Positions 30,337-55,005 of a DNA stretch of 64,000 nucleotides are shown here, piece by piece (within the stretch, counting starts at the first letter, position 1; each line of letters begins with the position of its first letter). This DNA comes from a phage. A program made the position numbers and the translations under genes. The stretch lies in NCBI GenBank assembly GCA_024875585.1, contig GCA_024875585.1_4107.1; one strand, written 5' to 3'. Below the pieces are notes generated by a model, which saw only the letters and a list, made by a program, of their open reading frames with translations, was not told the DNA's origin and searched no databases.

Positions 30337-30342
30337 CAACGA

Positions 30343-30502: not shown

Positions 30503-30530
30503 TTGCAATTAGTTTTTAAACGCGTATAAT
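30503..30530 (+). promoter_or_regulatory. early promoter TTGCAA-N16-TATAAT
   Basis: consensus; hairpin GGGGGAGCGGTTCCCC follows. Confidence 0.6.
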
Positions 30531-30577
30531 GTTTTGCATAGGGGGAGCGGTTCCCCTGGTAACTAAGGAATAAGAAA

Positions 30578-30814: not shown

Positions 30815-30908
30815 AAGTACTTGATAATAGTTTGACTATGTATTACAGTACTGTATAATAGATACATAAGGGGCGAATAGTTTGCCCCTAGTACAAAGGG
30901 GAAACATT

Positions 30909-31139: not shown

Positions 31140-31145
31140 GTACAT

Positions 31146-31174
31146 AGCCCACCTGGTGGGCTTTTTTGTTTTTG
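31146..31174 (+). terminator. rho-independent terminator (AGCCCACC-UGG-UGGGCU + T-tract)
   Basis: hairpin + TTTTTTGTTTTT. Confidence 0.65.
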
Positions 31175-31211
31175 TAGTACTGCATACTTTGAAAATAGTT
31201 TTAAAAAAGTA

Positions 31212-31239
31212 GTTGACATTACCGCAAAAAGGCGTAGAA
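31212..31239 (+). promoter_or_regulatory. early promoter TTGACA-N16-TAGAAT
   Basis: followed by a diverged copy of the conserved leader element. Confidence 0.5.
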
Positions 31240-31363
31240 TGTATTACATCAAGACGGGGAGCACTAAGTAGACCGCCAGTAAGTCGAACGAAAAACTGGA
31301 CACGTCGAGAAAACTTTGATACACTAACTAACATAAACTAAACTTTAATTGAGGATTTATAAA

Positions 31364-31846
31364 ATGGCTAATGTAAAATCATTTCTGAAAGCACTGATTT
31401 CTAACGATACTGCTATTGCTGCTGAATTGCTGGCGGATCTGGATAGCGATACCATGAAAGCGGTACGCAACAATTTTAACATTGCGTACAGTGAAGCTAA
31501 AGAACTGCAAGCCAAAAAGATAGCAGAACTGGAAGAACAGAAAAAAGCCCGTGAAGAAGAATTACAAGCAACTATTGAAAGTATTCAGGCGGCGGTTGCA
31601 GGGTTGGATCTGGATGTAGTTGTAGAAATGGCACATAAAGCCCTGGCAGTTAAGTACGGTGAAGATAAGCCAGTATCTAAACCTAAAAAATGGATTCAGG
31701 AACGCGTAACGGTTGTTCTTGATAATGGCGAGGAACATTTAATTCCCGTGCGTGGTAACTGCATTGCGGTAGTTCTGGATGCTATCAAAGAAAGCGGATT
31801 GACTCGCGAGGAATGGATCGAAGCTCACCGCAAGATTGAAGCATAA
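31364..31846 (+). CDS. hypothetical protein (160 aa), predicted helical
   Basis: ATG after SD GAGGATT. Confidence 0.65.
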   Translation: MANVKSFLKALISNDTAIAAELLADLDSDTMKAVRNNFNIAYSEAKELQAKKIAELEEQKKAREEELQATIESIQAAVAGLDLDVVVEMAHKALAVKYGEDKPVSKPKKWIQERVTVVLDNGEEHLIPVRGNCIAVVLDAIKESGLTREEWIEAHRKIEA

Positions 31847-31867
31847 CAATTAAAGTACTGAATCAAT

Positions 31868-31895
31868 AGCCCACTTTTTATAGTGGGCTTTTTTG
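31868..31895 (+). terminator. rho-independent terminator (GCCCAC-loop-GTGGGC + T6)
   Basis: hairpin + TTTTTTGTG. Confidence 0.6.
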
Positions 31896-32122
31896 TGCTT
31901 ATCGTTTACCATGCCACCAGCACCGCCTAGAATCGATTCTAACGCATTAAACTGATTATCTGATGAATCGCCCTAGCTGGTGGCGTTAATGCCGTTAGAA
32001 CGCGATTGAGGATGTTTAAAGTATTTTTGCAAAAAGTAATAAAAAGTACTTGCACGATTAAGAGATTAGAGTATAATTAATTACATCAAGACAAGACACC
32101 TTAACTAACTGAGGATATAAAG

Positions 32123-32275
32123 ATGAATACTTATGAACTGGATTGTTTTACTTTACAAGTAATGTCAGTATGCAGTAAAAAAGATTGGTCATCAAAGGAA
32201 TTTAAAGCAGTTATTGCGTGTGCAAAACACGGCAAGACTATCAATGAAACGGCATCAATCATTGATAAACTTTAA
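32123..32275 (+). CDS. small hypothetical protein (50 aa)
   Basis: promoter TTGCAC...TATAAT upstream; SD GAGGATA; below track cutoff. Confidence 0.4.
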   Translation: MNTYELDCFTLQVMSVCSKKDWSSKEFKAVIACAKHGKTINETASIIDKL

Positions 32276-32345
32276 AAAATAGTTTGACAATAGTTTTAAG
32301 TACTGCGATAATACATACATCAACTACTGAATAGGAATAAAAACA

Positions 32346-32573
32346 ATGGCTATCGTAATCACTCGCGTAACTGGTACTACTGGCACTGCTTCAACTGTTG
32401 CTGTAATTACTAATAAGAAAGGTGCAGAATTACATTTTGCAATGGATAAATGGGCCGTTAATGAGTTTGGTCAGTGGGCAAGTGTAGAATACATTGAAAC
32501 CTATCAAGTGCCATCGATTAGCTTAACTGATTTAGGTGTAGAACGTATCCTTTGTCTGGATGAATTAAATTAA
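32346..32573 (+). CDS. hypothetical early protein (75 aa)
   Basis: promoter TTGACA...CGATAAT upstream; SD AGGAATAA. Confidence 0.6.
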   Translation: MAIVITRVTGTTGTASTVAVITNKKGAELHFAMDKWAVNEFGQWASVEYIETYQVPSISLTDLGVERILCLDELN

Positions 32574-32660
32574 AAAAGTACTTGCAAAGTAAATCGAATA
32601 AAGTATAATACATTACATCAAGGGGAGAAAATGGTTCTCCCCACTAAGAGGAAACTAAAA

Positions 32661-32804
32661 ATGAAAACTTGTCAATGTGGTAAAAAATCTATTACTGGTT
32701 TGAAACGGGGCGTTTCACTTTGCCAGTACCATTATAATTTACAAGTATGGGGTAAAGAATGGGCCGACCAGGTTGAAGCATCAAAGAAAGCAAAAAGTAA
32801 GTAA
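32661..32804 (+). CDS. small Cys-rich protein (47 aa), possible zinc ribbon
   Basis: CQCG...CQYH; promoter + hairpin + SD AAGAGGAAA; below track cutoff. Confidence 0.4.
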   Translation: MKTCQCGKKSITGLKRGVSLCQYHYNLQVWGKEWADQVEASKKAKSK

Positions 32805-32823
32805 AATTATTATCACAGTACTA

Positions 32824-32852
32824 TTGACATAGATTGATAGTACTGGCATAAT
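32824..32852 (+). promoter_or_regulatory. repeated promoter cassette TTGACA-N17-CATAAT (copy 1)
   Basis: about 80 bp block incl. RBS and ATGGCT repeated at 33119, 35781, 42948. Confidence 0.55.
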
Positions 32853-32885
32853 AGATTTTATCAAGACAACTAAGAGGAAATTAAA

Positions 32886-33098
32886 ATGGCTATCATTATT
32901 AAAAACAAAGTTAATAAGACTATCGTTAAACTGGCAGAAGTGAAAGAAGGTTATAAAGTATCTTGGGAGGGTTTTTATCGGACGTTTACTGATATTGACG
33001 ATGCAATCAATTACTACACTGATACGGTTAAAAACTTTGTTCGTGCTGATGTGGTTATGGCAGTGGCAACATATAAAGCATCAAAAGAAAGTAAGTAA
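32886..33098 (+). CDS. hypothetical early protein (70 aa)
   Basis: MAII... start shared with 35841 gene; SD AAGAGGAAA. Confidence 0.6.
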   Translation: MAIIIKNKVNKTIVKLAEVKEGYKVSWEGFYRTFTDIDDAINYYTDTVKNFVRADVVMAVATYKASKESK

Positions 33099-33118
33099 AA
33101 AATATTATCACAGTACTA

Positions 33119-33147
33119 TTGACATAGATTGATAGTACTGGCATAAT
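33119..33147 (+). promoter_or_regulatory. repeated promoter cassette (copy 2)
   Basis: identical to copy 1. Confidence 0.55.
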
Positions 33148-33180
33148 AGATTTTATCAAGACAACTAAGAGGAAATTAAA

Positions 33181-33525
33181 ATGGCTAACATCAATACTAT
33201 AGCAGCACAAAATATCAACCTGTCTTCTGTTGAAGTTGTACACATTGCCGCCCGGCGTTGGTTCCAGGCGTCTTATGGTAATACGTATTTCTCTTTAACG
33301 GTAGATGTTGAAATCAATGGCGAATTTATTGAAGTAGTAAACGTGCCGTTCCAATATGGCTACGGGGATCATTTTGACACTGTAGCAATGGAAGAATTAA
33401 GCAAGGTTATTAATATGGAAGGTAAAGAGTTTTTACGCGGTTCTTATCTTTCCCGTTTTTGCCGTGATAATAATATTACTGTTTATAGTTCTGTTAGTGA
33501 TGTTAAACGCAAAAAAGATCTTTAA
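33181..33525 (+). CDS. hypothetical early protein (114 aa); paralogue of 39222..39545
   Basis: shared FQYGYGDHF / FTYGYGTQG and C-terminal VKRKKD. Confidence 0.65.
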   Translation: MANINTIAAQNINLSSVEVVHIAARRWFQASYGNTYFSLTVDVEINGEFIEVVNVPFQYGYGDHFDTVAMEELSKVINMEGKEFLRGSYLSRFCRDNNITVYSSVSDVKRKKDL

Positions 33526-33538
33526 TTAGCTTTACTTT

Positions 33539-33567
33539 ATGCAGATACTTTGATACAGTGTCTGCAT
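33539..33567. promoter_or_regulatory. inverted repeat ATGCAGA-N15-TCTGCAT
   Basis: 7 bp perfect inverted repeat after 33181 gene; operator or weak terminator. Confidence 0.3.
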
Positions 33568-33605
33568 AGGGGAAAGAAATTAAATCAACTTAAGAGGATA
33601 GTAAA

Positions 33606-33875
33606 ATGAAAAATATCAGTACTTTAATCGATGCAGGTACACATGTTCGTCGGTCTATGGTTGCAACCAGTTCTACAAAACAAGTAGCGAGCGGTTATCT
33701 TGTATTTGTGCACGATGGTAAACTCCTGGAACGTTCAATCAATTTTGATGTTAAAAACAATTGCCGTTTTATTATCTTTAAGCGTGAGCAATATAAAATT
33801 GATTTACCAGCGAAGCCCATTAGTGGGGCGTACAACGTTCAATCATTGTTTGAGCGTCAACCATACACCTATTAA
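33606..33875 (+). CDS. hypothetical protein (89 aa)
   Basis: SD AAGAGGATAG. Confidence 0.6.
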   Translation: MKNISTLIDAGTHVRRSMVATSSTKQVASGYLVFVHDGKLLERSINFDVKNNCRFIIFKREQYKIDLPAKPISGAYNVQSLFERQPYTY

Positions 33876-33926
33876 TCAAAACAACGTTAGCGGTCGATTT
33901 AGGCCGCTTATACTGGGGATTATATA

Positions 33927-34199
33927 ATGAATACTAATCAAGTACTGAATGAGATTGAAAGCATCATTAAACCGATGAAGCGTACTGATGCTATGTTAAC
34001 ACCGGAAGAATGCCGCCTTTATGAGCGTTACAGCGTCGAACAAGTCCAGGCAATGGCTATGGCTACCCCAGCCGTTAAACAGCCTGAGAACGCGTTACAG
34101 GACGTTACAGGGGATTATATCATCAATCCAGTACTAGGGAAGATGGAAGCAATCACCGAAGAACAAAAAGACTACTTAAGCCAGTACTTAAAAGGTTAA
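33927..34199 (+). CDS. hypothetical protein (90 aa)
   Basis: ORF, ATG start. Confidence 0.55.
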   Translation: MNTNQVLNEIESIIKPMKRTDAMLTPEECRLYERYSVEQVQAMAMATPAVKQPENALQDVTGDYIINPVLGKMEAITEEQKDYLSQYLKG

Positions 34200-34204
34200 T
34201 TAAT

Positions 34205-34414
34205 ATGCTTACTGTACAGGATAAGATCGACATCTTAAAGGTTAATATGTATGTGATTGATGCAGATCCTGAAAAAGTATTTGCATACGATGATTCTAAT
34301 CGTAGTCCTTTTTATTGTAGTCATGTAGTTGGATATGTGCCGTTATCGTATGTTATCGAAAGAGTGGTTGATTCAGCATACAAACATTTTTTAGAAAATA
34401 GTACTTGCAATTAG
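34205..34414 (+). CDS. hypothetical protein (69 aa)
   Basis: TAATTAATATG junction. Confidence 0.55.
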   Translation: MLTVQDKIDILKVNMYVIDADPEKVFAYDDSNRSPFYCSHVVGYVPLSYVIERVVDSAYKHFLENSTCN

Positions 34415-34482
34415 TTTTTAGTACTGTATAATGTTTTACATGAAGGGGGGAAATGATTCTCCCCAATAACAGGAGAAACAAA

Positions 34483-34635
34483 ATGAAACAATACAACGCT
34501 CGGTTTGATGTTACTATCGGCAACGGCAAAGGTCAATTCTCTTTCAGTACTCGTAAGAGTTATACAGAAAACTTCTTGCGTAATTGTGCACTGACCGCCG
34601 CACAAATTAAACATTATTTTCAGGCTAAAAAATGA
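34483..34635 (+). CDS. small hypothetical protein (50 aa)
   Basis: ATG after SD AGGAGAAA; track start 34453 lies in the leader hairpin. Confidence 0.45.
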   Translation: MKQYNARFDVTIGNGKGQFSFSTRKSYTENFLRNCALTAAQIKHYFQAKK

Positions 34636-34721
34636 AATCATTAGCTTATTATAGCTCGGCCCTGGTCGGTGCATTGATCGCGGCATTGTTAGTAGCTTAT
34701 CTATTCTTTATGGTGATTTAA
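34632..34721 (+). CDS. tiny hydrophobic peptide (29 aa)
   Basis: ATGA-coupled; single TM-like segment; speculative. Confidence 0.3.
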   Translation: MKSLAYYSSALVGALIAALLVAYLFFMVI

Positions 34722-34859
34722 ATGAATCCTAACGGTATAATTTACAGTACTCCTAAAACGAAAGCAGATAAAGCGGAAGCACGTAAAGCGAAAGTAAAGG
34801 AGTACATCAAGCAAGGTATGACACGAAAGGCGGCGATTCTAAAAGCTAAAAATAAATGA
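34722..34859 (+). CDS. small basic protein (45 aa)
   Basis: TAAATG-coupled; Lys-rich; speculative. Confidence 0.3.
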   Translation: MNPNGIIYSTPKTKADKAEARKAKVKEYIKQGMTRKAAILKAKNK

Positions 34860-34866
34860 AAAAAAG

Positions 34867-34889
34867 TGGTTGACTTCGGTCAGCCATTT
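34867..34889 (+). terminator. terminator hairpin (GGTTGAC-UUCG-GTCAGCC) with weak T-tract
   Basis: start of a 130 bp repeated intergenic module. Confidence 0.5.
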
Positions 34890-34915
34890 TGCTATTATAT
34901 ATTCATTGAGAGATA

Positions 34916-43352: not shown

Positions 43353-43553
43353 ATGTCTATCGCTATCGCCCTGGTCGAAGTACTGAAAGAAGCTAAAGCC
43401 AACCTTATCGATGTACAGATTAAGGAATTGCAAAATGGCTTAATCGGCTGTACTTGTACCGCTGGTGGCCCGTCAGACTATCGGGAATTCGAATCACTTG
43501 AATCGATGGTCCGTTATCTTACAATCATCGTAGAAGATTGGAGAATCATCTAA
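43353..43553 (+). CDS. hypothetical early protein (66 aa)
   Basis: promoter TTGACA...TATAAT + hairpin GCGGGGGAATAGTTCTCCCGC. Confidence 0.6.
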   Translation: MSIAIALVEVLKEAKANLIDVQIKELQNGLIGCTCTAGGPSDYREFESLESMVRYLTIIVEDWRII

Positions 43554-43572
43554 CAAAAAAAAAGAATAAAAA

Positions 43573-43597
43573 GGGATTGACTCCGGTCAGTCCCTTT
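43573..43597 (+). terminator. terminator hairpin (GGGATTGAC-UCCG-GTCAGTCCC + TTT)
   Basis: same cassette as 41282. Confidence 0.5.
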
Positions 43598-43623
43598 GCT
43601 ATTATATACGCATAGACAAAAAC

Positions 43624-43655
43624 TAGCCCACAGGGTGCATAGGTGTATCTAAAAT
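43624..43655. repeat. dispersed intergenic repeat, orientation A (diverged)
   Basis: AGCCCACAGGGTGCATAGGTGTATCTAAAATAT. Confidence 0.4.
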
Positions 43656-43799
43656 ATATAGTTAATAACGGTGAGTAACCATCTGCTGGTGGAGTGAAAA
43701 CTATTAATAAAAAGTATTGACAAAGTATATCAGTACTGCAATAATGTATCTCGTAGGGCGGCAATGGTGCGACGGCCCACAAAGTTAGGAGATACACAA

Positions 43800-44132
43800 A
43801 TGAGTACTTCAATCGCTATCGTTAAAGCTTTCATCCGTACCAACGTTTCATCTGTATTCATTGACGGATTGGATCGGGAAGTAGAATACTCAATCATTAT
43901 CGCACAAACGGCAAACGGTGCTCGGTACATCCTTAATGATAGTGAAGCAAATCACTACTACTTCACTAAAGCCACTGGCTTTAAACGCATCGATGCTGAT
44001 GTAGTATACGCTAAGATGAATAAGCTGGTAGATAAGATTAACACTAAAGGTACTATCGATTTACAGTACTGGACCGAAACCGATCCAGAATATGGATCTC
44101 ACCGCTACCTGAATCCAGGTATTAAAATGTAA
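43800..44132 (+). CDS. hypothetical protein (110 aa)
   Basis: ATG after SD AGGAGATA; promoter TTGACA...TGCAAT upstream. Confidence 0.6.
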   Translation: MSTSIAIVKAFIRTNVSSVFIDGLDREVEYSIIIAQTANGARYILNDSEANHYYFTKATGFKRIDADVVYAKMNKLVDKINTKGTIDLQYWTETDPEYGSHRYLNPGIKM

Positions 44133-44221
44133 AAAGTACTTGTGTAGCACTTAGATTTAAGTATAATGTTTTTCATAGAGAGGGGGAAATGGTTCTCCCT
44201 CATAAATTAAGGAGTTTTATC

Positions 44222-44623
44222 ATGACCTTCTCAATCACTTCCTTCGCTGACGTTTTAGTACTGGCTCGGACTTTTGGCAAAGCTGGCCTTGAGCACGCTG
44301 TAAGTAATGGTTATATGCACCCGGAATATTGCCGCATTATCGGTAGCTGCAAACGTTGGGCCGTGTCCCGTAATATTGAGATTGAAAACTTCAATGATGG
44401 TAACAACGAATATACAGTTGATGCAGTATTCGAATCCGTTGATCTCGGCGGTATCTATAACACTAACCTGAATGATGTGCGTATCGTTCGCACGGGGTTC
44501 GGTGCTTATGATGTATCTATCCGTGAAGCGATGGACAAGGGATACATTAGCAAGGATCAGTTAGCTTACATTATGCAGCAGACTAAAGAGCGTAATGAAG
44601 CACGCACTATCTTAGGTCTGTAA
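44222..44623 (+). CDS. hypothetical protein (133 aa)
   Basis: ATG after SD AAGGAG; track start lies in the hairpin. Confidence 0.6.
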   Translation: MTFSITSFADVLVLARTFGKAGLEHAVSNGYMHPEYCRIIGSCKRWAVSRNIEIENFNDGNNEYTVDAVFESVDLGGIYNTNLNDVRIVRTGFGAYDVSIREAMDKGYISKDQLAYIMQQTKERNEARTILGL

Positions 44624-44647
44624 GCATTACACATCACTAAACATCAT

Positions 44648-44667
44648 AGGCCGCTCTCTAGCGGCCT
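44648..44667 (+). promoter_or_regulatory. perfect hairpin AGGCCGCT-CUCU-AGCGGCCU (no T-tract)
   Basis: 8 bp GC-rich stem after 44222 gene; weak terminator or RNA stabiliser. Confidence 0.35.
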
Positions 44668-44691
44668 TAACTATATCAGGAGTACATACAC

Positions 44692-44901
44692 ATGATCTAT
44701 ACAGTATACAGCGTTCTAGGCACTATTGCAGGTGTACACGATAACGTCGATGATACTATGAGTACAGTACTGCAACAGGTTCCACTAAAGCCTAAGACAG
44801 TTAAGAAGATGACCGCACGACTAACCAGGGCGACGGCTGGCGTGGAAGTATGGCAGGACTACGGGGATACACAGGTAATCGTAAGCGTAACGAGGGATTA
44901 A
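44692..44901 (+). CDS. hypothetical protein (69 aa)
   Basis: SD CAGGAG. Confidence 0.55.
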   Translation: MIYTVYSVLGTIAGVHDNVDDTMSTVLQQVPLKPKTVKKMTARLTRATAGVEVWQDYGDTQVIVSVTRD

Positions 44902-44929
44902 TACGTAAAATGATTTAGTACTGATTCAG

Positions 44930-44995
44930 AAAAAAGTCAAGGCGTTTTTAAAATTATGCGTTAAAAAAATGCATAGGTAATCCCTTGACTTTTTT
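44930..44995. promoter_or_regulatory. 13 bp inverted repeat AAAAAAGTCAAGG / CCTTGACTTTTTT separated by 40 bp
   Basis: perfect inverted repeat in non-coding DNA ahead of family L array. Confidence 0.4.
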
Positions 44996-45093
44996 GAAAT
45001 AAAAGGGATTGGACTATGGCAAAATGCGTAGGGGGGCTAAAGTGCGGGTAACTTAGCGGCTTCGATAAAGGGGTATTACGAATAAAATGTTAT

Positions 45094-45123
45094 TGACTTT
45101 TTATATAAATCGTATAAAATATG
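45094..45123 (+). promoter_or_regulatory. candidate promoter for family L array (TTGACT...TATGAT)
   Basis: hexamers with about 18 bp spacing; weak. Confidence 0.3.
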
Positions 45124-45150
45124 ATTGATAATAATTTTAAGGGAGTCCCT

Positions 45151-45348
45151 GTGCGTATTTTAACTCAAGCAGAACACCACGAAAGACTTATCAATAACAT
45201 GGCTATGATAATGTATAAGTCCCATGACCGTGGTATTGCCTATAAGCGTGAATTAGTACTGGAACTATTCATTGGAACTAACTTTCAGGAAAGGTATGTC
45301 AACGATTGGATTTGGTATTTAATTGAAGATATAACGAGTAAACTATGA
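45151..45348 (+). CDS. family L small protein
   Basis: GTG start 5 nt after SD AAGGGAG gives MRILTQAEH (family-like N-terminus); motif FIGTNFQERYV. Confidence 0.5.
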   Translation: MRILTQAEHHERLINNMAMIMYKSHDRGIAYKRELVLELFIGTNFQERYVNDWIWYLIEDITSKL

Positions 45349-45539
45349 TCATTTTAAATAAAGAAGAATATCAAGAACTGTTACGTAAAAACTTTGTAAA
45401 GATTTATAATACAGACACACACGTAGAACGAATGGAGTTATACCTTTTGATTACATTGGGAACTAACTATCAGGAAAGATGGGTGATTCAATATATGGAT
45501 ACATTGAAAAATAAAATATTGTCCACGAGGAAACAATGA
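45345..45539 (+). CDS. family L small protein
   Basis: motif TLGTNYQERWV; ATGA coupling. Confidence 0.65.
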   Translation: MIILNKEEYQELLRKNFVKIYNTDTHVERMELYLLITLGTNYQERWVIQYMDTLKNKILSTRKQ

Positions 45540-45745
45540 AAACTATAACACGAACCCAATCATACGGACTTATCTTGAAATACATGGACTTAATGGTGGA
45601 TATCAGCAAAGACCTGCCTAAAACTGCAATTGAAGTTGCAAGAGCAGAGATCCGCATGTTGGCTGTACTGAACACAAACCATCAGGAAGAGTATGTTGAC
45701 GATTGGATTCGATTTTTAATAGAAGATATTAAGAGTAAACTATGA
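45536..45745 (+). CDS. family L small protein
   Basis: motif VLNTNHQEEYV; ATGA coupling. Confidence 0.65.
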   Translation: MKTITRTQSYGLILKYMDLMVDISKDLPKTAIEVARAEIRMLAVLNTNHQEEYVDDWIRFLIEDIKSKL

Positions 45746-45954
45746 TTATATTAACACCTGAAGAATATAAGAAACGTTTTAATTCTGTCCAGACTGAAAT
45801 ATTACTTATATACCTTTCAAATGCAGATCTTAACTTATCAAGGGTAATGGAGAAGGATTTACTTATGGGTGCATTTTTGGATACAGACTTTCAGGAGTAT
45901 TATGTAGGGGAATACTTTATTGCACTTCAGAACCACATTAAGAGTAAACTATGA
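45742..45954 (+). CDS. family L small protein
   Basis: motif FLDTDFQEYYV; ATGA coupling. Confidence 0.65.
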   Translation: MIILTPEEYKKRFNSVQTEILLIYLSNADLNLSRVMEKDLLMGAFLDTDFQEYYVGEYFIALQNHIKSKL

Positions 45955-46166
45955 TTATTCTAGAAAAATCATATCAATATACTGAACGCATCGCTGCCAG
46001 ACAACTTGAAATCCTCATAATATACGAAGAGACTTCTGATTTAAACTTAGCCGAGGTATTGGAAAATGAAATACTTTTGGGTGCATTCTTGGGAACAGAC
46101 TATCAGGAGTATTATGAGGAAAAGTATTTGTCATCTCTTGAGAAATACGTCAGGAGCAAACTATGA
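45951..46166 (+). CDS. family L small protein
   Basis: motif FLGTDYQEYY; ATGA coupling. Confidence 0.65.
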   Translation: MIILEKSYQYTERIAARQLEILIIYEETSDLNLAEVLENEILLGAFLGTDYQEYYEEKYLSSLEKYVRSKL

Positions 46167-46390
46167 AACATTTAAGTAATATAGAGAAGAATAAAATTAT
46201 CATTGCTGTAATAAACAAATATTTTACACTTCCACAAAAAGAATGTTTATCTATAAGGGAACACAGGATAAACACCACCGAGATTCGCATGTTGGCTGTA
46301 CTGGGGACTAACTTCCAAGAAGGCTATGTTCATGAGCACATCGTTGCACTCACTAATTACATAATGGACAAATGTAATGAACATCATTAA
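46163..46390 (+). CDS. family L small protein
   Basis: motif VLGTNFQEGYV. Confidence 0.65.
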   Translation: MKHLSNIEKNKIIIAVINKYFTLPQKECLSIREHRINTTEIRMLAVLGTNFQEGYVHEHIVALTNYIMDKCNEHH

Positions 46391-46601
46391 TAACTTTGAA
46401 TACGAGGCCCGTGCTAAGAGTGCCAGAAAAAAAGAGAACACCATTTACTTCACTATGATGTACTTACAATGGACTGAAATTGAAGAAAAGGTTGCTGAAG
46501 TATGGATGTTGGAATTCATGGGGACGCAGTATCAGAATAGGTTTGCGGGTGAGTATATCAATGTTCTTATGAAACAAATAGAAAGGAAGGAAAAGAACTA
46601 A
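46377..46601 (+). CDS. family L small protein
   Basis: motif FMGTQYQNRF. Confidence 0.6.
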   Translation: MNIINNFEYEARAKSARKKENTIYFTMMYLQWTEIEEKVAEVWMLEFMGTQYQNRFAGEYINVLMKQIERKEKN

Positions 46602-46690
46602 TGGAGGGATGCTGTACTTTATTGGAACTTTTATATATTCATGAACACATAGTTGCCCTCACAAATCTAATAAAGGATAAATGTAAATGA
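46601..46690 (+). pseudogene. family L gene remnant (29-codon ORF matching only the C-terminal third)
   Basis: HEHIVALTNLIKDKCK matches C-terminus of 46163 gene; GTNYQE core absent; still start/stop-coupled. Confidence 0.4.
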
Positions 46691-46944
46691 AACACTTGAC
46701 TGATGATGAACATGAAACTATAATTCGTAAACTAACCCCCATCACAAGGATAGTCTACGGTGATCCCAGCCTCACATGGAACCAAATGCGAGCTAAAGTT
46801 AATGAGCTATGGTTGCTGTACTTTATGGGGACTCAATATCAAGATAAGTTTTGCACAGAATATATCGAACAATTAACGAATGTTATACAGGATAAACTAA
46901 ATGAACGAATTGTGGAAAAATATGAAAACTTTATCAAGCATTGA
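46687..46944 (+). CDS. family L small protein
   Basis: motif FMGTQYQDKF. Confidence 0.65.
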   Translation: MKHLTDDEHETIIRKLTPITRIVYGDPSLTWNQMRAKVNELWLLYFMGTQYQDKFCTEYIEQLTNVIQDKLNERIVEKYENFIKH

Positions 46945-47173
46945 GTATCAGACTGCCCTCTTCTCTCTTCTAAACACCCTCCGCACGAACAATAAACTTT
47001 ATAATTCCCGTGAAGCTGATATTGTCAACGCTGATGTATATCTTAATAAATTTATAGGGACTAACTATCAAGAACTGTTTGTTTTACGATATATCTCTGC
47101 ACTAAGAAACGAAATATCAGATAAAACCCGCCAAGCCAGAAGAGAATGGAAGAGACAATGCAACAAAGACTAA
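46901..47173 (+). CDS. family L small protein
   Basis: motif FIGTNYQELFV; start may be internal ATG at 46922. Confidence 0.6.
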   Translation: MNELWKNMKTLSSIEYQTALFSLLNTLRTNNKLYNSREADIVNADVYLNKFIGTNYQELFVLRYISALRNEISDKTRQARREWKRQCNKD

Positions 47174-47409
47174 ATCACAAAATGTATTGTAAACTATTAC
47201 AGAATCTAGGACAAAAACACTATGATACAGTATCTGAAATATTACCCTATGATATCATGCGTTTAATTCATAGTGAGGCAGAGATGCTTGTACTGATGAC
47301 CGGTACTGATAAAACAGCAATCACCAGATCGATAGAGCAATATATTGATGCACACTGTCAATGTATTAGAACTGAGATATGGAGGCGAGTAAATGAAAGT
47401 ACTGAATGA
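47146..47409 (+). CDS. family L small protein (diverged)
   Basis: motif LMTGTDKTAI. Confidence 0.5.
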   Translation: MEETMQQRLNHKMYCKLLQNLGQKHYDTVSEILPYDIMRLIHSEAEMLVLMTGTDKTAITRSIEQYIDAHCQCIRTEIWRRVNESTE

Positions 47410-47608
47410 GTATCAGTATCATTGGAGGTTACAAACTATAAGAGGGAAAGTTGTTAGTATTTCTTTAGATAAGTCTATTGCACAAGAGGACAAATGTGTT
47501 ATAATAGCTGAAATGAAGTTGGGTGTATTTGTAGGAACAAACTATCAAAACATCTACACTGACGTATTATTAAGTGCCTTACGCAACAAGGTGTTATCCA
47601 GAGAATGA
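47393..47608 (+). CDS. family L small protein
   Basis: motif FVGTNYQNIY; SD GGAGG. Confidence 0.65.
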   Translation: MKVLNEYQYHWRLQTIRGKVVSISLDKSIAQEDKCVIIAEMKLGVFVGTNYQNIYTDVLLSALRNKVLSRE

Positions 47609-47823
47609 GAAAATTAATAGGTTACGAATATGTTAAGCTTCTGAAAACCTGTAGTATTAGCAGGGTAAAGATTCAATCTGATAAGAGTATTCCTGTTGAA
47701 CTAAAGTACGCAATGATGGCTGAACTTTATGTAGGTGCACTATTGGGGACAAACTATCAACAAATGTATGTAGACCTATGGGTTGACGCACTACTGAAAG
47801 AGGTCCAAAGTAAATGCAAATGA
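47605..47823 (+). CDS. family L small protein
   Basis: motif LLGTNYQQMYV. Confidence 0.65.
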   Translation: MRKLIGYEYVKLLKTCSISRVKIQSDKSIPVELKYAMMAELYVGALLGTNYQQMYVDLWVDALLKEVQSKCK

Positions 47824-48035
47824 TTCATTTATCTTACTATGAATATCAAAAACGTTTAAATGCATCAAGGGATATAAGGATTAAAATCTACAATAACAAA
47901 AGATTGAAATCTGAAGCCAAAAAAATCAAAATGATAGAAGCTGAATTATGCAACTTCCTTGGGACGAACTATCAGGATGATAAGGTAACAAACTATCTTA
48001 GAGAACTAATGATTAGTATCAAGAGTAAATGTTAG
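47814..48035 (+). CDS. family L small protein
   Basis: motif FLGTNYQDDKV. Confidence 0.65.
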   Translation: MQMIHLSYYEYQKRLNASRDIRIKIYNNKRLKSEAKKIKMIEAELCNFLGTNYQDDKVTNYLRELMISIKSKC

Positions 48036-48039
48036 GCAG

Positions 48040-48297
48040 ATGTACATGAAAATGATTAAATTATCTCAAGCAAAATATAAAGAACGCCTGGTGAAAATTG
48101 CACCTAGACTTAATGAAATCCATCACGGAGAAGTCATTAAACACGGAAATAAGATGATTATGAAACTTGAGTTAAAGGTGGGTGCATTCATAGGAACAAA
48201 CTATCAGGAGTATTATGTAGATGAATACATAATCGCACTTAAGAGATACATTGGAAGAAAACTATATCTACAAACTAAAGAATTGTATTGCAAATAA
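48040..48297 (+). CDS. family L small protein
   Basis: motif FIGTNYQEYYV. Confidence 0.65.
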   Translation: MYMKMIKLSQAKYKERLVKIAPRLNEIHHGEVIKHGNKMIMKLELKVGAFIGTNYQEYYVDEYIIALKRYIGRKLYLQTKELYCK

Positions 48298-48314
48298 ATG
48301 CAAGGATAATGAAT

Positions 48315-48578
48315 ATGAAAATGATCAATTTAAGTAAAGATGAATATACCGAGCGTATGACAAAAATTACGCACAAACGTAATACAATCTATCACAACCC
48401 AGAAATTCAACACAGTAAGAAAATGATTATGATGCGTGAGTTAAAGATGGGTGTATTCTTAGGAACAAACTATCAAGATACAGAAGTAAATCGCTTAATC
48501 GCGGAGTTACTACTGGAAATCAGAGGTAAGCTGTACTTTCATCAAATGACCCAACCACTGAGGTGTACTAAGAAATGA
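48315..48578 (+). CDS. family L small protein
   Basis: motif FLGTNYQDTEV; ATG after SD AAGGATA (track start 48288 further upstream). Confidence 0.6.
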   Translation: MKMINLSKDEYTERMTKITHKRNTIYHNPEIQHSKKMIMMRELKMGVFLGTNYQDTEVNRLIAELLLEIRGKLYFHQMTQPLRCTKK

Positions 48579-48790
48579 TCAACATCACATTGCAAGAAAG
48601 ATTCATCCGAATCAACTATGCAATTACCAAATTAGATGCTACTATAGGATTCCAAAGTCTACCGTTCCAAACAAGAATGATATTAGAGTGCGAAGCTAAA
48701 TTGGGTGTACTGTTAGGAACGCAACACCAACAACGATATGTGGAAATCTGGATTGATCTTTTAACCCAAAATGTACATGAGAAAATGTAA
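48575..48790 (+). CDS. family L small protein
   Basis: motif LLGTQHQQRYV. Confidence 0.65.
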   Translation: MINITLQERFIRINYAITKLDATIGFQSLPFQTRMILECEAKLGVLLGTQHQQRYVEIWIDLLTQNVHEKM

Positions 48791-49027
48791 ATGAAAAATG
48801 AAATGATATACTTAACGAATGAAGAGTTTCAAGAGAAGATGTTAAAAATCTATGATAATACTCTTGAGTACGTTCCAAATCAATCAATATATGAAGTGTC
48901 TGCGAATGTATTATTTCAGAAGCTACCATACGTTCTTGGAACGGATAAACAAGAATTTATGGTCAAAAATATGATTGAACATCTTATGATGAGTATTAAG
49001 GAAAAAGTGAATGCAAAAGAAAAATGA
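48791..49027 (+). CDS. family L small protein
   Basis: motif VLGTDKQEFMV. Confidence 0.6.
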   Translation: MKNEMIYLTNEEFQEKMLKIYDNTLEYVPNQSIYEVSANVLFQKLPYVLGTDKQEFMVKNMIEHLMMSIKEKVNAKEK

Positions 49028-49274
49028 AATGATATACTTAACACCTGCTGAGTTAACAGAAAGACTAGTTAAATCCAGAAGATATACAAATCAACTTCCT
49101 CACAACCCAAATCAAACCCCAGCGGAAAGGAGTGCAGAAGTTTTATTCCAATCACTACCATACCTTCTTGGAACTAATAGACAAGAGTATCATATCGAAC
49201 GTATAATTAAATATCTTAAAATTACTATTAAGGAAAAAGTAAATGCTCAAGAATTTAAAAATCCTAACAGTTAA
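49011..49274 (+). CDS. family L small protein
   Basis: motif LLGTNRQEYHI; N-terminus near-duplicate of 48791 gene. Confidence 0.6.
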   Translation: MQKKNEMIYLTPAELTERLVKSRRYTNQLPHNPNQTPAERSAEVLFQSLPYLLGTNRQEYHIERIIKYLKITIKEKVNAQEFKNPNS

Positions 49275-49485
49275 TGAATATCATAAGATTGTAATGAAAA
49301 CTAATAGTGCAATTTCTAAAAAATCAAACCCAAAGTACATACTGGAACACACATTTGAAGAACGTCAATTAGCTTTAGTTGAAGCAAAACTTCTTGCACT
49401 ATTAGGAACAAACTATCAGGAAGAATACATCAGAAAACTAATATACCTTTTAACTAAACACATCAGGAAAAGAAAAAAAGCATGA
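49243..49485 (+). CDS. family L small protein
   Basis: motif LLGTNYQEEYI. Confidence 0.65.
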   Translation: MLKNLKILTVNEYHKIVMKTNSAISKKSNPKYILEHTFEERQLALVEAKLLALLGTNYQEEYIRKLIYLLTKHIRKRKKA

Positions 49486-49712
49486 AGCACTTGACAGATG
49501 ATGAACATGGGCTTATAGTAATGGATGTAATCAACATCGAATACAAAAAGTTGATACGCTATCGTTGTTATGAAGATAAGCAACTAGTTCTAGCAGAACA
49601 GAAGTTGTTTCGACTCTTAAACACAAACTTCCAAGCACAATACGAAGAATCGTATATGTACCTTTTGGCGAGGAAAGCAAAAAGAGATTATGAAAATTTT
49701 AAGCAAAGGTGA
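49482..49712 (+). CDS. family L small protein
   Basis: motif LLNTNFQAQY. Confidence 0.6.
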   Translation: MKHLTDDEHGLIVMDVINIEYKKLIRYRCYEDKQLVLAEQKLFRLLNTNFQAQYEESYMYLLARKAKRDYENFKQR

Positions 49713-49911
49713 TTCAGTAATATTACTTATAGAGAGTTCAAATAAATTCTTAAACATAACACTGTCTGATATAGATGAAGATGATAAAGAAGTACTGAGA
49801 GCAGATTTAAGAGTACTGTTACATCTCGGAACAAACCTACAAGAAGAATATGTAGAGTACTACATTGATGAACTTAAAGAATCAGTACTGAGAAGATGCA
49901 AATGCGAATGA
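49690..49911 (+). CDS. family L small protein
   Basis: motif HLGTNLQEEYV. Confidence 0.6.
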   Translation: MKILSKGDSVILLIESSNKFLNITLSDIDEDDKEVLRADLRVLLHLGTNLQEEYVEYYIDELKESVLRRCKCE

Positions 49912-50123
49912 TTACCGACGAAGAATACCTAACAATTATAAATGGATTGTTTTTGAAGTTGTTTGTTATTAACACATCAGATATACCAGATATGGATAAA
50001 ATTATTAAGAGAAATGAAATCTATGTTCTAGCTACCCTGGGAACTAACTATCAAGAATGCAATATTAATGATTATATTAATACACTTAAAGGAGCGATTG
50101 AACTAAAATGCCAAAACCACTAG
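49896..50123 (+). CDS. family L small protein
   Basis: motif TLGTNYQECNI. Confidence 0.65.
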   Translation: MQMRMITDEEYLTIINGLFLKLFVINTSDIPDMDKIIKRNEIYVLATLGTNYQECNINDYINTLKGAIELKCQNH

Positions 50124-50323
50124 GAACAGCAGAATACATTGAACTCATGGGATTACACTTCTCATCCTTTCAGAAACTTATGCGAGAATCAAAGAATGAT
50201 TTAGAATATACCATCAGAGGTTCAGATTTAAGAATGCTTCTCACCCTAGACACAGATTCCCAAGAGAGATTTGTCAATGAGCATATTAGAGCACTTTTAA
50301 TGGAAATTAAAAGTAAACTATGA
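50108..50323 (+). CDS. family L small protein
   Basis: motif TLDTDSQERFV. Confidence 0.6.
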   Translation: MPKPLGTAEYIELMGLHFSSFQKLMRESKNDLEYTIRGSDLRMLLTLDTDSQERFVNEHIRALLMEIKSKL

Positions 50324-50535
50324 AGGTAATATCAAACCAAGAGTACTTGGCACTATTCAGGAAGAATAATCACAAATATATGGCACTTGATTCAAGAACT
50401 GATATAGGGGAACTTGAAAAAAATCTTTTGCGTTCAGAGATGATAGTACTGACACTCTTAGGAACACAACATCAAGAGAGAACTGTTGATTCATATATTG
50501 AGATTCTTAAGAAGCTTATACAGGAAAAACTATGA
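50320..50535 (+). CDS. family L small protein
   Basis: motif LLGTQHQERTV. Confidence 0.65.
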   Translation: MKVISNQEYLALFRKNNHKYMALDSRTDIGELEKNLLRSEMIVLTLLGTQHQERTVDSYIEILKKLIQEKL

Positions 50536-50762
50536 GAATCATAACACAAACAGACATATTTAAGTTAGCAAGGGAACATACATCTGAAATTGATGCTATA
50601 GTATCAAAAAGTTACAATGACCCTTATACACAAGATGTGCACTACAATGAATTATGGGTGTATATACTTTTAGGTACAAATTATCAAGAGCAAGCAGTAC
50701 AGAAGTATTTGGCAGCTTTAAGTACTGCTACTGCTAATAGTATAGGTATTAAAAAATGCTAG
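50532..50762 (+). CDS. family L small protein
   Basis: motif LLGTNYQEQAV. Confidence 0.65.
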   Translation: MRIITQTDIFKLAREHTSEIDAIVSKSYNDPYTQDVHYNELWVYILLGTNYQEQAVQKYLAALSTATANSIGIKKC

Positions 50763-50992
50763 TACTGACAGAACTAGAAATGTATCATAGATTTAATAAG
50801 TACTATCATTTACTTAAGCCTATACAGAGGATTAAATGTCCATTTGAAGAGAAACAGGTATTAATTTATGAGCATAAGTTATTTGTATCATTAGGTACGA
50901 ATGAACAAGAGTATTATTTGAAGTTGTACTTAATTACTTTAATTGAATTGATTAATCACAAAACACAGAAAGCTAAGAAATCTAAAAAATGA
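50756..50992 (+). CDS. family L small protein
   Basis: motif SLGTNEQEYYL. Confidence 0.6.
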   Translation: MLVLTELEMYHRFNKYYHLLKPIQRIKCPFEEKQVLIYEHKLFVSLGTNEQEYYLKLYLITLIELINHKTQKAKKSKK

Positions 50993-51327
50993 AAACTAAT
51001 ATTCAACTCAAGGTATACATATCTTATGAATCTATATACATCAAATGCAGTCTATGTAAAGATGTAATGGATTATAAAGGTAAGCCATTCACAATTACTT
51101 ACAGTCTAACAGGAGGCTTTTATATATCTTTTGTTGATTACGAAAATAAAATATACAAGCACATTGATATTAAAGATTTAAGTACCTTGTCAGATGAGGA
51201 ATACTTTCAAGAATCATTAGTATGGGATTTAGAGTTTCCTATGACATTAGTACACAAAATGATAGTACTAATGAAAGAAACTAAACCTGAGCCGAGTGGT
51301 TATGAAGAATTCATTATTGAGTATTAA
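50989..51327 (+). CDS. family B protein (112 aa) interleaved in family L array
   Basis: motif DEEYFQESLVWD. Confidence 0.6.
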   Translation: MKTNIQLKVYISYESIYIKCSLCKDVMDYKGKPFTITYSLTGGFYISFVDYENKIYKHIDIKDLSTLSDEEYFQESLVWDLEFPMTLVHKMIVLMKETKPEPSGYEEFIIEY

Positions 51328-51339
51328 GAGTACTGATAT

Positions 51340-51555
51340 ATGAAAAGATTATCATACAAAGATTACAGTAAACTTATCAGTACTTTACAACCAGAAATTA
51401 GAAGAATTAATTATCTTCCTATACCCAACGAAGAACGTGTAGTACTGAAAAATGAGTTAATATTAAAACGCACAGTAGGTACTAACTATCAAGATAATAG
51501 TGTTTGCGATTTAATTAGAGGGTTAATGATCACAATAAAGGCCAAGTGCTATTGA
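51340..51555 (+). CDS. family L small protein
   Basis: motif TVGTNYQDNSV. Confidence 0.65.
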   Translation: MKRLSYKDYSKLISTLQPEIRRINYLPIPNEERVVLKNELILKRTVGTNYQDNSVCDLIRGLMITIKAKCY

Positions 51556-51561
51556 CAGTAC

Positions 51562-51590
51562 TTGACGGAGCTTTTCATTACTGATATAGT
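51562..51590 (+). promoter_or_regulatory. sigma70-like promoter TTGACG-N17-TATAGT
   Basis: internal promoter within the array. Confidence 0.45.
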
Positions 51591-51619
51591 ACACTAACGT
51601 TAATCATAGGGTAGAAATT

Positions 51620-51865
51620 ATGTTAAAATTTTTAAATTTCCTTATCGTCTTGTGTATTGTTCTTGGGATTGCACCGTTTGTACTGGTGTATATGGATTCA
51701 GATGAAATGCAAAAGATGAATTGCACAAAGACGGGACAGAGTAGAGAAGAGACGATTCTTATGCCTGTTACTGTTATTGTTAATAATATGCCCATTACAA
51801 ACATGGTCCCTACCCTAACGACAACGTACCAGTACTCTTGTACAGACGGGGAGAGGTGGAGATGA
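51620..51865 (+). CDS. small protein with N-terminal hydrophobic segment (81 aa)
   Basis: MLKFLNFLIVLCIVLGIAPFVLVYM looks like a signal peptide or TM helix. Confidence 0.5.
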   Translation: MLKFLNFLIVLCIVLGIAPFVLVYMDSDEMQKMNCTKTGQSREETILMPVTVIVNNMPITNMVPTLTTTYQYSCTDGERWR

Positions 51866-52182
51866 AATTTAATATAGCAAAAACATCGAATGTATGTATA
51901 TTTGGTTATGCAGAAGAGTTAGGTGATATTGACATTCTTTTGTACAAAAAGGATGGTGTTATGCATTTCAAGTACCAGGATGAAGAGGCAGACAATTATC
52001 TTTTGCCTAATTTAGTACAAATGCAGGAAGAGGAATTATTCCAGTACAGCTTAGTATATGACATTGATATTTGCACGATGCCAGTACTAATTAATATTCA
52101 AAAAGTGATGCTCGATGTGTTTGATAGGCTAATACAAGGCACACAAGGAAGAACCATATATGTCAATGTACAAGACAATTAA
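51862..52182 (+). CDS. family B protein (106 aa)
   Basis: motif EELFQYSLVYD; ATG after SD GGAGAGGTGGAG (track start 51838). Confidence 0.6.
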   Translation: MKFNIAKTSNVCIFGYAEELGDIDILLYKKDGVMHFKYQDEEADNYLLPNLVQMQEEELFQYSLVYDIDICTMPVLINIQKVMLDVFDRLIQGTQGRTIYVNVQDN

Positions 52183-52375
52183 TCAAGAATGGAAGAATCA
52201 AAAGTACAGAGAATTCAATAGGAATTTTACAAAAGACGAATTGAATATAAAAACAACAGAATTTGATATGTTTATTTTTCTCGGAACACGTTCTCAGGAG
52301 CAATTTGTTCATTATTATATAAATTCGTTGCGAGCGGAGATAGTATGCAAAACAAAGGGTATTATAAAAAGGTAA
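52160..52375 (+). CDS. family L small protein
   Basis: motif FLGTRSQEQFV. Confidence 0.6.
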   Translation: MSMYKTINQEWKNQKYREFNRNFTKDELNIKTTEFDMFIFLGTRSQEQFVHYYINSLRAEIVCKTKGIIKR

Positions 52376-52611
52376 ACCAACATTTGTACGCTACAAAGTA
52401 CAGGGATTTTTGTTTAAAGGGTGGTGATGAAGATTTTTCTTTGCGATTATCAGAATTTAATCTGTTATTTTATCTTGGTACATCGGAACAAGAAGAAATG
52501 GCACAGAAATTTCTCAATCACCTTGTACAAAAAATTAATATGCAAATTTTGATGCTTAAGTTACAGGATGAGATAAATGAATATGAACCCAACAATAGTA
52601 CAGGATCTTAA
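52345..52611 (+). CDS. family L small protein (diverged)
   Basis: motif YLGTSEQEEM. Confidence 0.55.
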   Translation: MQNKGYYKKVNQHLYATKYRDFCLKGGDEDFSLRLSEFNLLFYLGTSEQEEMAQKFLNHLVQKINMQILMLKLQDEINEYEPNNSTGS

Positions 52612-54504: not shown

Positions 54505-54980
54505 AGTTTAGTTTAGATGCTGCTTTTAAATTTGTACACAAGATAGAAACAATATATCGTACATTATGTGCAATACGATTAGTAACATCTGAACTTGATG
54601 TTGGTAAAAGGTATCAGGTATGGAATAACACATTTCTAGACAAAGAGCGTTGTTCAACTGGGTTTAATATTTTATCATTTAATCCAAGTAATTGTTACCC
54701 AGAGAAGCATGAGCGTTATCCGAATGATGACATGTGGTTTGAGTACAAAGAAGATGGTGATATGTCGTTCATTGAAGTTCCTGATGATTTTAATGCACAA
54801 GATTTAACAGAAGAATGGTGGTTCCAGCAGAATTTAGTCCACGATGATATTGATTTATTTTTTTATGTAGTATTTAAAATGCTTTATCACAACAAGATAG
54901 TACAAGATAGTGTATTTTTTTCATGTCTATATATTGATGATTTGTACAATGAAATTCAAATCAACATGCCTGTATCGTAA
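54483..54980 (+). CDS. family B protein (165 aa)
   Basis: motif EEWWFQQNLVHD. Confidence 0.6.
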   Translation: MQYMSDLEFSLDAAFKFVHKIETIYRTLCAIRLVTSELDVGKRYQVWNNTFLDKERCSTGFNILSFNPSNCYPEKHERYPNDDMWFEYKEDGDMSFIEVPDDFNAQDLTEEWWFQQNLVHDDIDLFFYVVFKMLYHNKIVQDSVFFSCLYIDDLYNEIQINMPVS

Positions 54981-55005
54981 GATATGGGCTTTTTTTGTTT
55001 TGGTA

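Follow-up and report, generated by a model that had tools for sequence, protein, structure and literature searches.

A tandem array of 29 diverged small genes beside the terminal repeat of an Asteriusvirus jumbo phage

The stretch of DNA analyzed here, 64,000 nucleotides of phage contig GCA_024875585.1_4107.1 (hereafter the window), comes from an Asteriusvirus, a jumbo phage of Escherichia coli of the PBECO4/121Q type, and between positions 45151 and 52611 it carries, on the plus strand, an array of 29 full-length genes of a single small-protein family, together with one deleted remnant and three genes that are not members. We refer to the family as L and to its members as L01 to L29. Our models and comparisons describe it as a clade-specific multigene family of soluble proteins of ~65-88 amino acids, each predicted to consist of an N-terminal strand followed by three helices. 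We tentatively favor, at somewhat less than an even chance, the reading that these proteins are a panel of target-specific binding modules that act early on host proteins. The alternatives are, in decreasing order of likelihood, that they are adaptors of the phage's own machinery, that the array is a largely dispensable expansion, that its products form a hetero-oligomer, that they bind nucleic acid, and that the array is an artefact of assembly. The genes themselves are already deposited in GenBank and in PHROGs, with no function assigned; the array's position and the fold, copy-number and evolution data are new here. Jumbo-phage reviews and the genome papers on UE-S1, Sharanji, fEgEco12, phAPEC6, G17 and CBB describe neither the family and its fold nor the array and its position.

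The array and its members

A six-frame scan of the whole window with a hidden Markov model (HMM) returned exactly 29 full-length L matches, all on the plus strand, between 45118 and 52608 (E 1e-17 to 1e-26), and no further full-length member anywhere else in the 64 kb. That model was built from the array's own 29 sequences; the independent check is the PHROG profile phrog_4148, which was built from other phages, matches 28 of the 29 members at E ≤ 0.01 (best 5.7e-27) and is covered by L01 over positions 2-71 of its 74. A second PHROG, phrog_28039, additionally matches 14 members. Both results bear out the 29 tandem paralogues counted in an earlier note on this DNA. All 29 can be aligned, with pairwise identities to L01 of 15-35%, an invariant threonine, and a glutamine and one leucine that are each at least 90% conserved. 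The (L/F)xGTNYQE motif that the earlier note had proposed stands as a family motif but not as a feature of every member: GTNYQ is exact in only 11 of the 29, the general form is [G/N/D]-T-x-x-Q, and the outlier L10, which has a 6-residue insertion, lacks the glutamine. In the list below, the rows for the L genes rest on the family alignment, the six-frame HMM scan and family-guided start codons.

45151..45348 (+): L01; GTG start, 65 amino acids; the longer open reading frame (ORF) from ATG 45121 is probably unused
45345..45539 (+): L02
45536..45745 (+): L03
45742..45954 (+): L04
45951..46166 (+): L05
46163..46390 (+): L06
46377..46601 (+): L07
46602..46686 (+): remnant of a decayed L copy, a pseudogene that keeps just the C-terminal helix (HMM E 0.002, profile positions 55-72)
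46687..46944 (+): L08
46922..47173 (+): L09; longest ORF from 46901
47158..47409 (+): L10, the outlier; insertion falls after GT; longest ORF from 47146
47393..47608 (+): L11
47605..47823 (+): L12
47820..48035 (+): L13; longest ORF from 47814
48052..48297 (+): L14; longest ORF from 48040
48321..48578 (+): L15; longest ORF from TTG 48288
48575..48790 (+): L16
48803..49027 (+): L17; longest ORF from 48791
49029..49274 (+): L18; longest ORF from 49011
49243..49485 (+): L19
49482..49712 (+): L20
49690..49911 (+): L21
49902..50123 (+): L22; longest ORF from 49896
50108..50323 (+): L23
50320..50535 (+): L24
50532..50762 (+): L25
50756..50992 (+): L26
50989..51327 (+): family B gene 1; 112 amino acids; phrog_13866/15629; no L-HMM match
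51340..51555 (+): L27
51620..51865 (+): ORF of 81 amino acids, hydrophobic at its N-terminus and outside family L; phrog_8826
51838..52182 (+): family B gene 2; 114 amino acids; phrog_13866, E 8e-42
52160..52375 (+): L28
52345..52611 (+): L29; 44% identity over 34 residues to RaK2 ORF389

The array begins later than the 45094 of the earlier note. The GTG at 45151 aligns to an ATG in relatives and has AAGGGAG upstream of it; the ATG at 45121, which served as the start in that note and in the UE-S1 record, directly follows the -10 hexamer of the promoter described below and lies upstream of the predicted transcription start. The decayed copy that had been placed at about 46601..46690 is present: relative to an intact 52-amino-acid ORF of phage G17, the remnant carries deletions of 58 bp and 11 bp, and its start codon and GT..Q motif are gone. 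The two interleaved family B genes are likewise real, both matching phrog_13866, and the third non-member, matching phrog_8826, is now added to them.

Over 7.5 kb the array region is 95.7% identical to Escherichia phage UE-S1, and at the nucleotide level it matches 36 phage records, all of them Escherichia or Salmonella phages of the PBECO4/121Q type; each record that we checked is Asteriusvirus or unclassified, and the matched genes are all annotated 'hypothetical protein'. The array is present in all six relatives examined, with gene order largely kept in at least five. These comparisons bear on the possibility, raised in the earlier note, that the array is a collapsed or expanded repeat, which can for practical purposes be dismissed. 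DNA repeats inside the array reach at most 84% identity over at most 220 nt and are thus too diverged for collapse or expansion in assembly, and the same array occurs in relatives that were sequenced independently.

Family B (phrog_13866, about 100-114 amino acids, with the shared block ...SDEE(L/Y)FQ..L(V)(W/Y/I)D...) has three copies in and just past the array, at 50989-51327, 51838-52182 and 53868-54170; the second has a weak homologue in Klebsiella phage RaK2, beside the L-like genes of that phage. Nothing beside the array marks it as a set of immunity proteins for polymorphic toxins: no toxin domain of Pfam occurs in the neighboring ORFs, all of which belong to PHROGs that lack a function. 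Nor is there a helix-turn-helix (HTH) gene within the array or next to it, as would be expected of linkage to a regulator associated with anti-CRISPR genes.

Predicted fold, distribution and selection

Given the 29-sequence alignment, AlphaFold predicts L01 to be a three-helix bundle (predicted local distance difference test, pLDDT, 92.4), with helices at residues 16-33, 38-49 and 56-74 and a short N-terminal strand bridging to the loop between helices 2 and 3. The outlier L10 is also predicted to have three helices (pLDDT 85.7), and BFVD models of the phage 121Q paralogues, at 28-32% sequence identity, superpose with TM-scores of 0.72-0.88. Structure comparison found no informative fold relative of the L model, scans of the 29 members against Pfam, NCBIfam and PADLOC gave only scattered marginal matches of single members, consistent with chance, and the best hit of a profile search of PDB sequences had an E of 0.34. 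The motif, which the earlier note did not recognize from any characterized family, stays without one: the only families recovered are PHROGs lacking a function annotation. No transmembrane segment is predicted in any L member, and their isoelectric points (pI) range from 4.4 to 10.0, with 13 of the 29 acidic (pI below 6.5) and 13 basic.

A conservation survey of 166 unique L members from seven phages fits this model. Every conserved position belongs either to a hydrophobic core with helical spacing (L4, Y9, L13, I23, L43, L47, V56, I60, L63 and I67) or to a helix end (E8, E40, K70, and G48-T49-x-x-Q52, the N-cap box of helix 3); the remaining positions vary between paralogues, and the conserved ones include no catalytic-looking constellation. 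T-x-x-Q is a classical helix N-cap box. Since synonymous divergence (dS) across the motif codons is ordinary and their third positions vary, the motif appears to be constrained at the protein level, and a nucleotide-level repeat element as the cause of its conservation was ruled out.

On sequence alone, a hydrophobic-Gly-Thr-x-x-Gln stretch between two helices superficially resembles an HTH turn, and some members have basic tails. The L proteins could thus be nucleic-acid binders, either HTH regulators or histone-like, with L-G-T-x-x-Q forming the turn and leading into a recognition helix. Structure and charge led us to set the HTH reading aside, and we regard nucleic-acid binding as highly improbable: none of the 29 members matches an HTH profile of Pfam or NCBIfam, structure comparison did not recognize tri-helical HTH geometry in the L model, 13 of the 29 members are acidic, and helix 3, 19-30 residues long, carries the heptad pattern of the core.

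The family has a narrow distribution. Searched exhaustively with the HMM, a set of 1.84 billion representative proteins yielded only 88 clusters, one of which, a eukaryotic cluster with repeated RhoGAP-like units, is a spurious match; the named clusters come from Asteriusvirus phages, from E. coli assemblies, several of them on ~350-kb contigs that are presumably Asteriusvirus-type phages, or from the RaK2/K64-1 group of Klebsiella phages. With tblastn, family L was detected only in the 36 Escherichia or Salmonella phage records. A comparison across related phages, which the earlier note had suggested, gave 29, 30, 30, 26, 22 and about 19-20 full copies, within an overall range of 19-31:

This phage: 29 full copies and one remnant
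UE-S1: 29 full copies and one remnant, with two further members lying ~11 kb downstream
G17: 30 full copies and 1 partial
Turkey3: 30 full copies and 1 partial
Salmonella phage SD-15_S21: 26 full copies and 3 partial
A4: 22 full copies and 1 partial
JNE01: about 19-20 full copies

The outlying members of UE-S1 (ON568341 156515-156899, a place that corresponds to just beyond the end of the window) comprise one intact ORF and one open frame with no family-type start, and JNE01 has a similar outlying copy at 19757-19975 of the stretch compared.

Outside the genus, Klebsiella phage RaK2 (Alcyoneusvirus) keeps the upstream genes in the same order as the window and has ~6 scattered L-like members at the syntenic site: ORF362, ORF372, ORF389, ORF390, ORF373 and an unannotated ORF at JQ513383 ~244878-245036. 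They match the HMM at E 1e-5 to 1e-10, except for ORF373 (only 0.005), and we take them to be true distant homologues, downstream of the same flanking genes; they differ from the array in being spread over roughly 10 kb rather than packed. In two of them, ORF362 and ORF372 (11956-12363 and 15639-15989 of the RaK2 stretch compared), an additional domain of ~50 amino acids follows the L domain at the C-terminal end of the protein, a fusion also seen in one metagenomic relative (6446-6844 of the contig stretch compared). Two metagenomic contigs, with GC contents of 29% and 32%, carry 11 and 17 L members. The syntenic RaK2 members and these metagenomic arrays suggest that family L is older than the split between Asteriusvirus and Alcyoneusvirus and has expanded more than once.

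Such fusions are what one would expect of an adaptor module, and they bear on the foremost alternative, which we nonetheless consider unlikely: that the L proteins are accessory subunits or adaptors of the phage's own machinery, for example modulators of RNA polymerase or of the phage sigma factor, or chaperones each paired with one of the many paralogous virion or other phage proteins, and not inhibitors of host proteins. The conserved order of orthologues and the purifying selection described below would suit such a role, and several other apparent paralogue arrays in the genome could supply the partners. However, copy number varies from 19 to 31, slots have been lost with no visible loss of neighboring genes, the array is not beside structural or transcription genes, and no counterpart of the fused C-terminal domain was found in the window. 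Dedicated chaperones, moreover, are usually encoded beside their clients.

Across relatives the order of slots is largely kept, except that the similar genes L04 and L05 have traded places in two of them, and identity per orthologous slot ranges from 36% to 100%. Even the youngest duplicates in the array share only about 70-77% DNA identity. Between the window and UE-S1, the dS of adjacent array genes runs from 0 to 1.25, which argues for replacement of alleles by recombination. As a pooled, crude Nei-Gojobori count over non-independent pairs, the ratio of nonsynonymous to synonymous divergence (dN/dS) is 0.32-0.39 for the array, compared with 0.14-0.26 in 13-19 flanking small genes; within the L proteins it is 0.16 at core positions and 0.43 at all other, presumed surface, positions. 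Judged by these ratios, selection on the array is purifying but relaxed, and the L genes are real coding genes that have been retained. The selection for variety proposed in the earlier note is therefore not seen as positive selection at these pooled values. Its claim of continuing duplication stands in part: copies have been gained, lost and degraded (19-31 copies, remnants, partial copies), but 'ongoing' overstates a process that left paralogues 15-35% identical and orthologues in one-to-one order. With no positive selection and with slots retained, the data point to fixed, distinct specificities rather than to a rapid arms race.

The same numbers can be asked whether the array matters at all. 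It might be largely dispensable: a stable mini-fold would have multiplied neutrally, or nearly so, and would persist because jumbo capsids tolerate additional DNA, with no specific target for each copy. A dN/dS about twice that of the flanking genes, pseudogene remnants and partial copies in several genomes, and the sufficiency of 22 copies in A4 and about 19 in JNE01 all fit this idea, which we think quite improbable: dN/dS is well under 1 even at the presumed surface positions, slots are kept in order among phages diverged up to a dS of ~0.45, the paralogues have stayed intact for the long time that their low identity implies, and two distant relatives that have not been cultured likewise carry large arrays.

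Genome position, promoter and transcription unit

The array lies directly beside a terminal repeat. PhageTerm and restriction digests have confirmed that the genome of phage fEgEco12 has a 20,993-bp direct terminal repeat (PMC13070987). Position 1 of that genome aligns to 24988 of the window and its physical right end to ~45054/45055, and because both ends map there we assign 24988-45055 as the terminal repeat. The array promoter begins 38 bp past the inner boundary of the repeat, so that the unique region opens with the array as its first transcription unit. The features concerned are as follows.

24988..45055 (+): direct terminal repeat, present as a single copy in the assembly; placed by alignment to the fEgEco12 ends
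45093..45120 (+): sigma70-like promoter of the array, TTGACT-16-TAAAAT; predicted transcription start ~45127
54968..54989 (+): hairpin with a T-run, the first terminator-like site on the plus strand past the array; the transcription unit probably ends here
55006-55034 (+): promoter-like site after the terminator-like hairpin

In an alignment from which the SD-15_S21 and A4 rows were left out, UE-S1, G17, Turkey3 and even the divergent JNE01 share the array promoter. A generic promoter scan showed no enrichment over shuffled sequences (66 found vs 72 expected); a strict sigma70 pattern gave 38 matches on the plus strand of the whole window, against 3.9 ± 1.9 in shuffles, and 5 on the minus strand. 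Two of the strict matches fall within the array, one at 45093 and the other inside the L08 coding sequence, and the next is at 55006. Over the ~9.9 kb scanned between the array promoter and 54968 we found no terminator-like site on the plus strand, and the UE-S1 record has a terminator annotated at the place matching 54968-54989 and none inside the array. With one upstream promoter and no such site before 54968, the array and six or seven further genes probably form a single early polycistron of ~9.9 kb. Rfam has no match within 43-56 kb.

Within this unit, 24 of the 31 junctions overlap when family-guided starts are used, 12 of them as ATGA, and only two have gaps of more than 25 nt (85 nt and 64 nt), in keeping with the near absence of intergenic DNA and the translational coupling by overlap reported in the earlier note. 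Several junctions have the sequence AAGAGTAAACTATGA, in which the codons of the conserved C-terminal ...K-S-K-L double as a Shine-Dalgarno-like AAGAG and as the overlapping stop and start.

Overlapping stop and start codons under one promoter are the usual arrangement for subunits of a complex. The tight packing and single promoter could accordingly mean that the 29 proteins co-assemble into one hetero-oligomer whose stoichiometry is set by translational coupling. We think this very unlikely: copy number differs among close relatives, and the members spread widely in charge and surface. For the related phage phAPEC6, mass spectrometry identified 62 virion proteins (PMC7247149 Table 1), none of which is among its L orthologues, gp462c-489c; these data from a relative suggest that family L is non-structural, and they provide no sign of such a complex in virions. 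The Sharanji paper also describes a subcellular organization in the genus with no phage nucleus-like compartmentalization (PMC11895373).

The surroundings of the array have several features of their own. Exactly at the inner boundary of the repeat, at 45025-45053, lies a GC-rich element, GCGTAGGGGGGCTAAAGTGCGGGTAAC, which is kept even in the divergent JNE01 and may be linked to terminus formation. Just before that boundary, an intergenic inverted repeat, AATCCCTT...AAGGGATT at 44978-45012, has no T-run after it and is conserved in UE-S1, G17, Turkey3 and fEgEco12. The first ~1.7 kb of the terminal repeat (24988-26700) is nearly free of ORFs; farther inside, 40683-41267 encodes a 194-amino-acid protein with a weak Pfam Pkinase match (E 1.3e-3, below the cut-off), whose orthologue is annotated PknA in the Turkey3 record and whose RaK2 homologue is ORF356. 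Upstream of the array, a near-consensus sigma70-like promoter with the shared form TTGACA-N8-AGTACTG-TATAAT precedes nearly every small gene, and such promoters are dense across 25300-45100 (+), for example at 25382, 30832, 35439, 36048, 38871, 39139, 41715 and 43270. A repeated cassette, TTGACTTCGGTCAGCCCTTTTTGCTATAAT, occurs on the plus strand at 1346, 5858, 9254, 10538, 34870, 38278, 41286 and 43577; its -35 hexamer lies within the hairpin TGAC-TTCG-GTCA, which is itself enclosed in a longer AAAGGG...CCCTTT stem, and the -10 hexamer follows. The cassette has the look of a terminator and a promoter in one.

Elsewhere in the window there are further apparent tandem runs of ORFs, called by similar size alone, with no paralogy implied: seven of 104-123 amino acids at 11426-14206 (+), three of 112-122 at 2392-3427 (+), five of 374-449 at 14940-21167 (-), which may be the virion proteins of ~41 kDa that were reported as 'DNA condensation' proteins in phAPEC6, and many ORFs of 150-190 amino acids in a long row at ~55000-64000 (+), with similar runs of 150-200 in UE-S1 and two metagenome contigs.

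A possible panel of early binders and its parallels

In the reading that we tentatively favor, the 29 genes would be expressed together and early by host RNA polymerase, with translational coupling, as the sigma70-like promoter, the ~9.9 kb with no terminator-like site and the mostly overlapping stop and start codons suggest. Each paralogue would be a module that binds a separate target through a surface of its own, and the panel would bind, neutralize or redirect host proteins (takeover targets, defense effectors, toxins) in the first minutes of infection. Slots would be retained across the genus, with an occasional loss, gain or swap for a divergent allele. In a more specific version, which we consider possible but doubtful, the array is an inhibitor library in which one three-helix scaffold displays ~30 fixed specificities, each against a different defense effector, toxin or takeover target, and the loss, gain or allele swap of a slot determines which strains can be infected. 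Its products would arrive together from the first transcript of the unique region, and the array would then be the counterpart, in a virus of bacteria, of the host-range families of African swine fever virus and poxviruses, on a fold that has no known relative. The host-takeover repertoire suggested in the earlier note is consistent with the context, namely the sigma70-like promoter and the absence of the phAPEC6 orthologues from the virion proteome.

Several points weigh against the idea of a panel of early binders. No L member has homology to a characterized anti-defense, takeover or regulatory protein in PHROGs, Pfam, NCBIfam or PADLOC; the PHROGs search, which includes annotated host-takeover and anti-defense families, returned only the two function-less PHROGs named above. 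Early expression is deduced from promoter consensus and position, and we found no transcriptome of the genus Asteriusvirus in the literature. Pervasive positive selection has left no sign: the 0.43 at presumed surface positions, which were assigned from patterns of conservation and hydrophobicity and not from model coordinates, is well short of one. Finally, small proteins can escape mass spectrometry of virions.

Comparison with known systems gives this reading its outline. phrog_4148 and phrog_28039 are the same family, clustered earlier from 121Q/PBECO4-type phages, in entries that give no function, structure or description of an array. With 29 diverged tandem copies, confined to one lineage and varying in number between isolates, the array has the marks of a viral multigene family or lineage-specific expansion. 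The multigene families (MGF) 110, 360 and 505 of African swine fever virus and the terminal host-range families of poxviruses are likewise non-structural, tandem, diverged paralogues that lie by terminal repeats and vary in copy number between isolates. In outline the array seems to resemble them; they have demonstrated roles in host range and immune evasion, whereas for the array, a single coupled operon in a virus of bacteria with no sequence or fold kinship to them, such a role is only proposed.

Closer to phages of this kind, T4 AsiA, Alc and Arn and the pre-early genes in the terminal repeat of T5 encode small soluble proteins that are expressed as infection begins, from promoters of the sigma70 type, and they lie at or next to the genome end. 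They resemble the array in size, solubility, promoter type and position, but they are single, unrelated genes that mostly have their own promoters, as do the genes upstream of the array, whereas the array consists of 29 paralogues behind one; searches of PHROGs, Pfam and BFVD detected no homology between L members and these proteins. Bacillus phage G has an expansion of zinc ribbons, with ~35 copies, discussed as possible transcription factors or DNA-binding proteins (PMC7824862). There, too, one small domain has multiplied to very high copy number in a jumbo phage, but the zinc ribbon is a known metal- and nucleic-acid-binding fold, whereas family L is mixed in charge, lacks a cysteine pattern and resembles no known fold. 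A lineage-specific family by a viral genome terminus was thus known before, from eukaryotic viruses and, loosely, from phage G; a coupled operon of 29 such genes in a phage, and the L scaffold itself, are new variants.

Asteriusvirus phages have been proposed for therapy, and about 80% of their genes lack a known function. The array amounts to about 2% of the genome, is conserved in the six relatives examined, belongs to a family present in all 36 matching records, and is placed where the first transcript of the unique region would arise. Whatever the function, annotation gains the start codon of the first gene, the boundary of the terminal repeat and a pseudogene. If the L proteins are target-specific binders, they would offer ~30 ready-made probes for host factors or defense systems, as well as a compact, stable and naturally diversified scaffold of about 70 amino acids, and host range might be explained or predicted from the slots in which phages differ. 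Repertoires for host interaction would then arise in phages, as they do in large eukaryotic DNA viruses, by the expansion of one gene beside the genome terminus.

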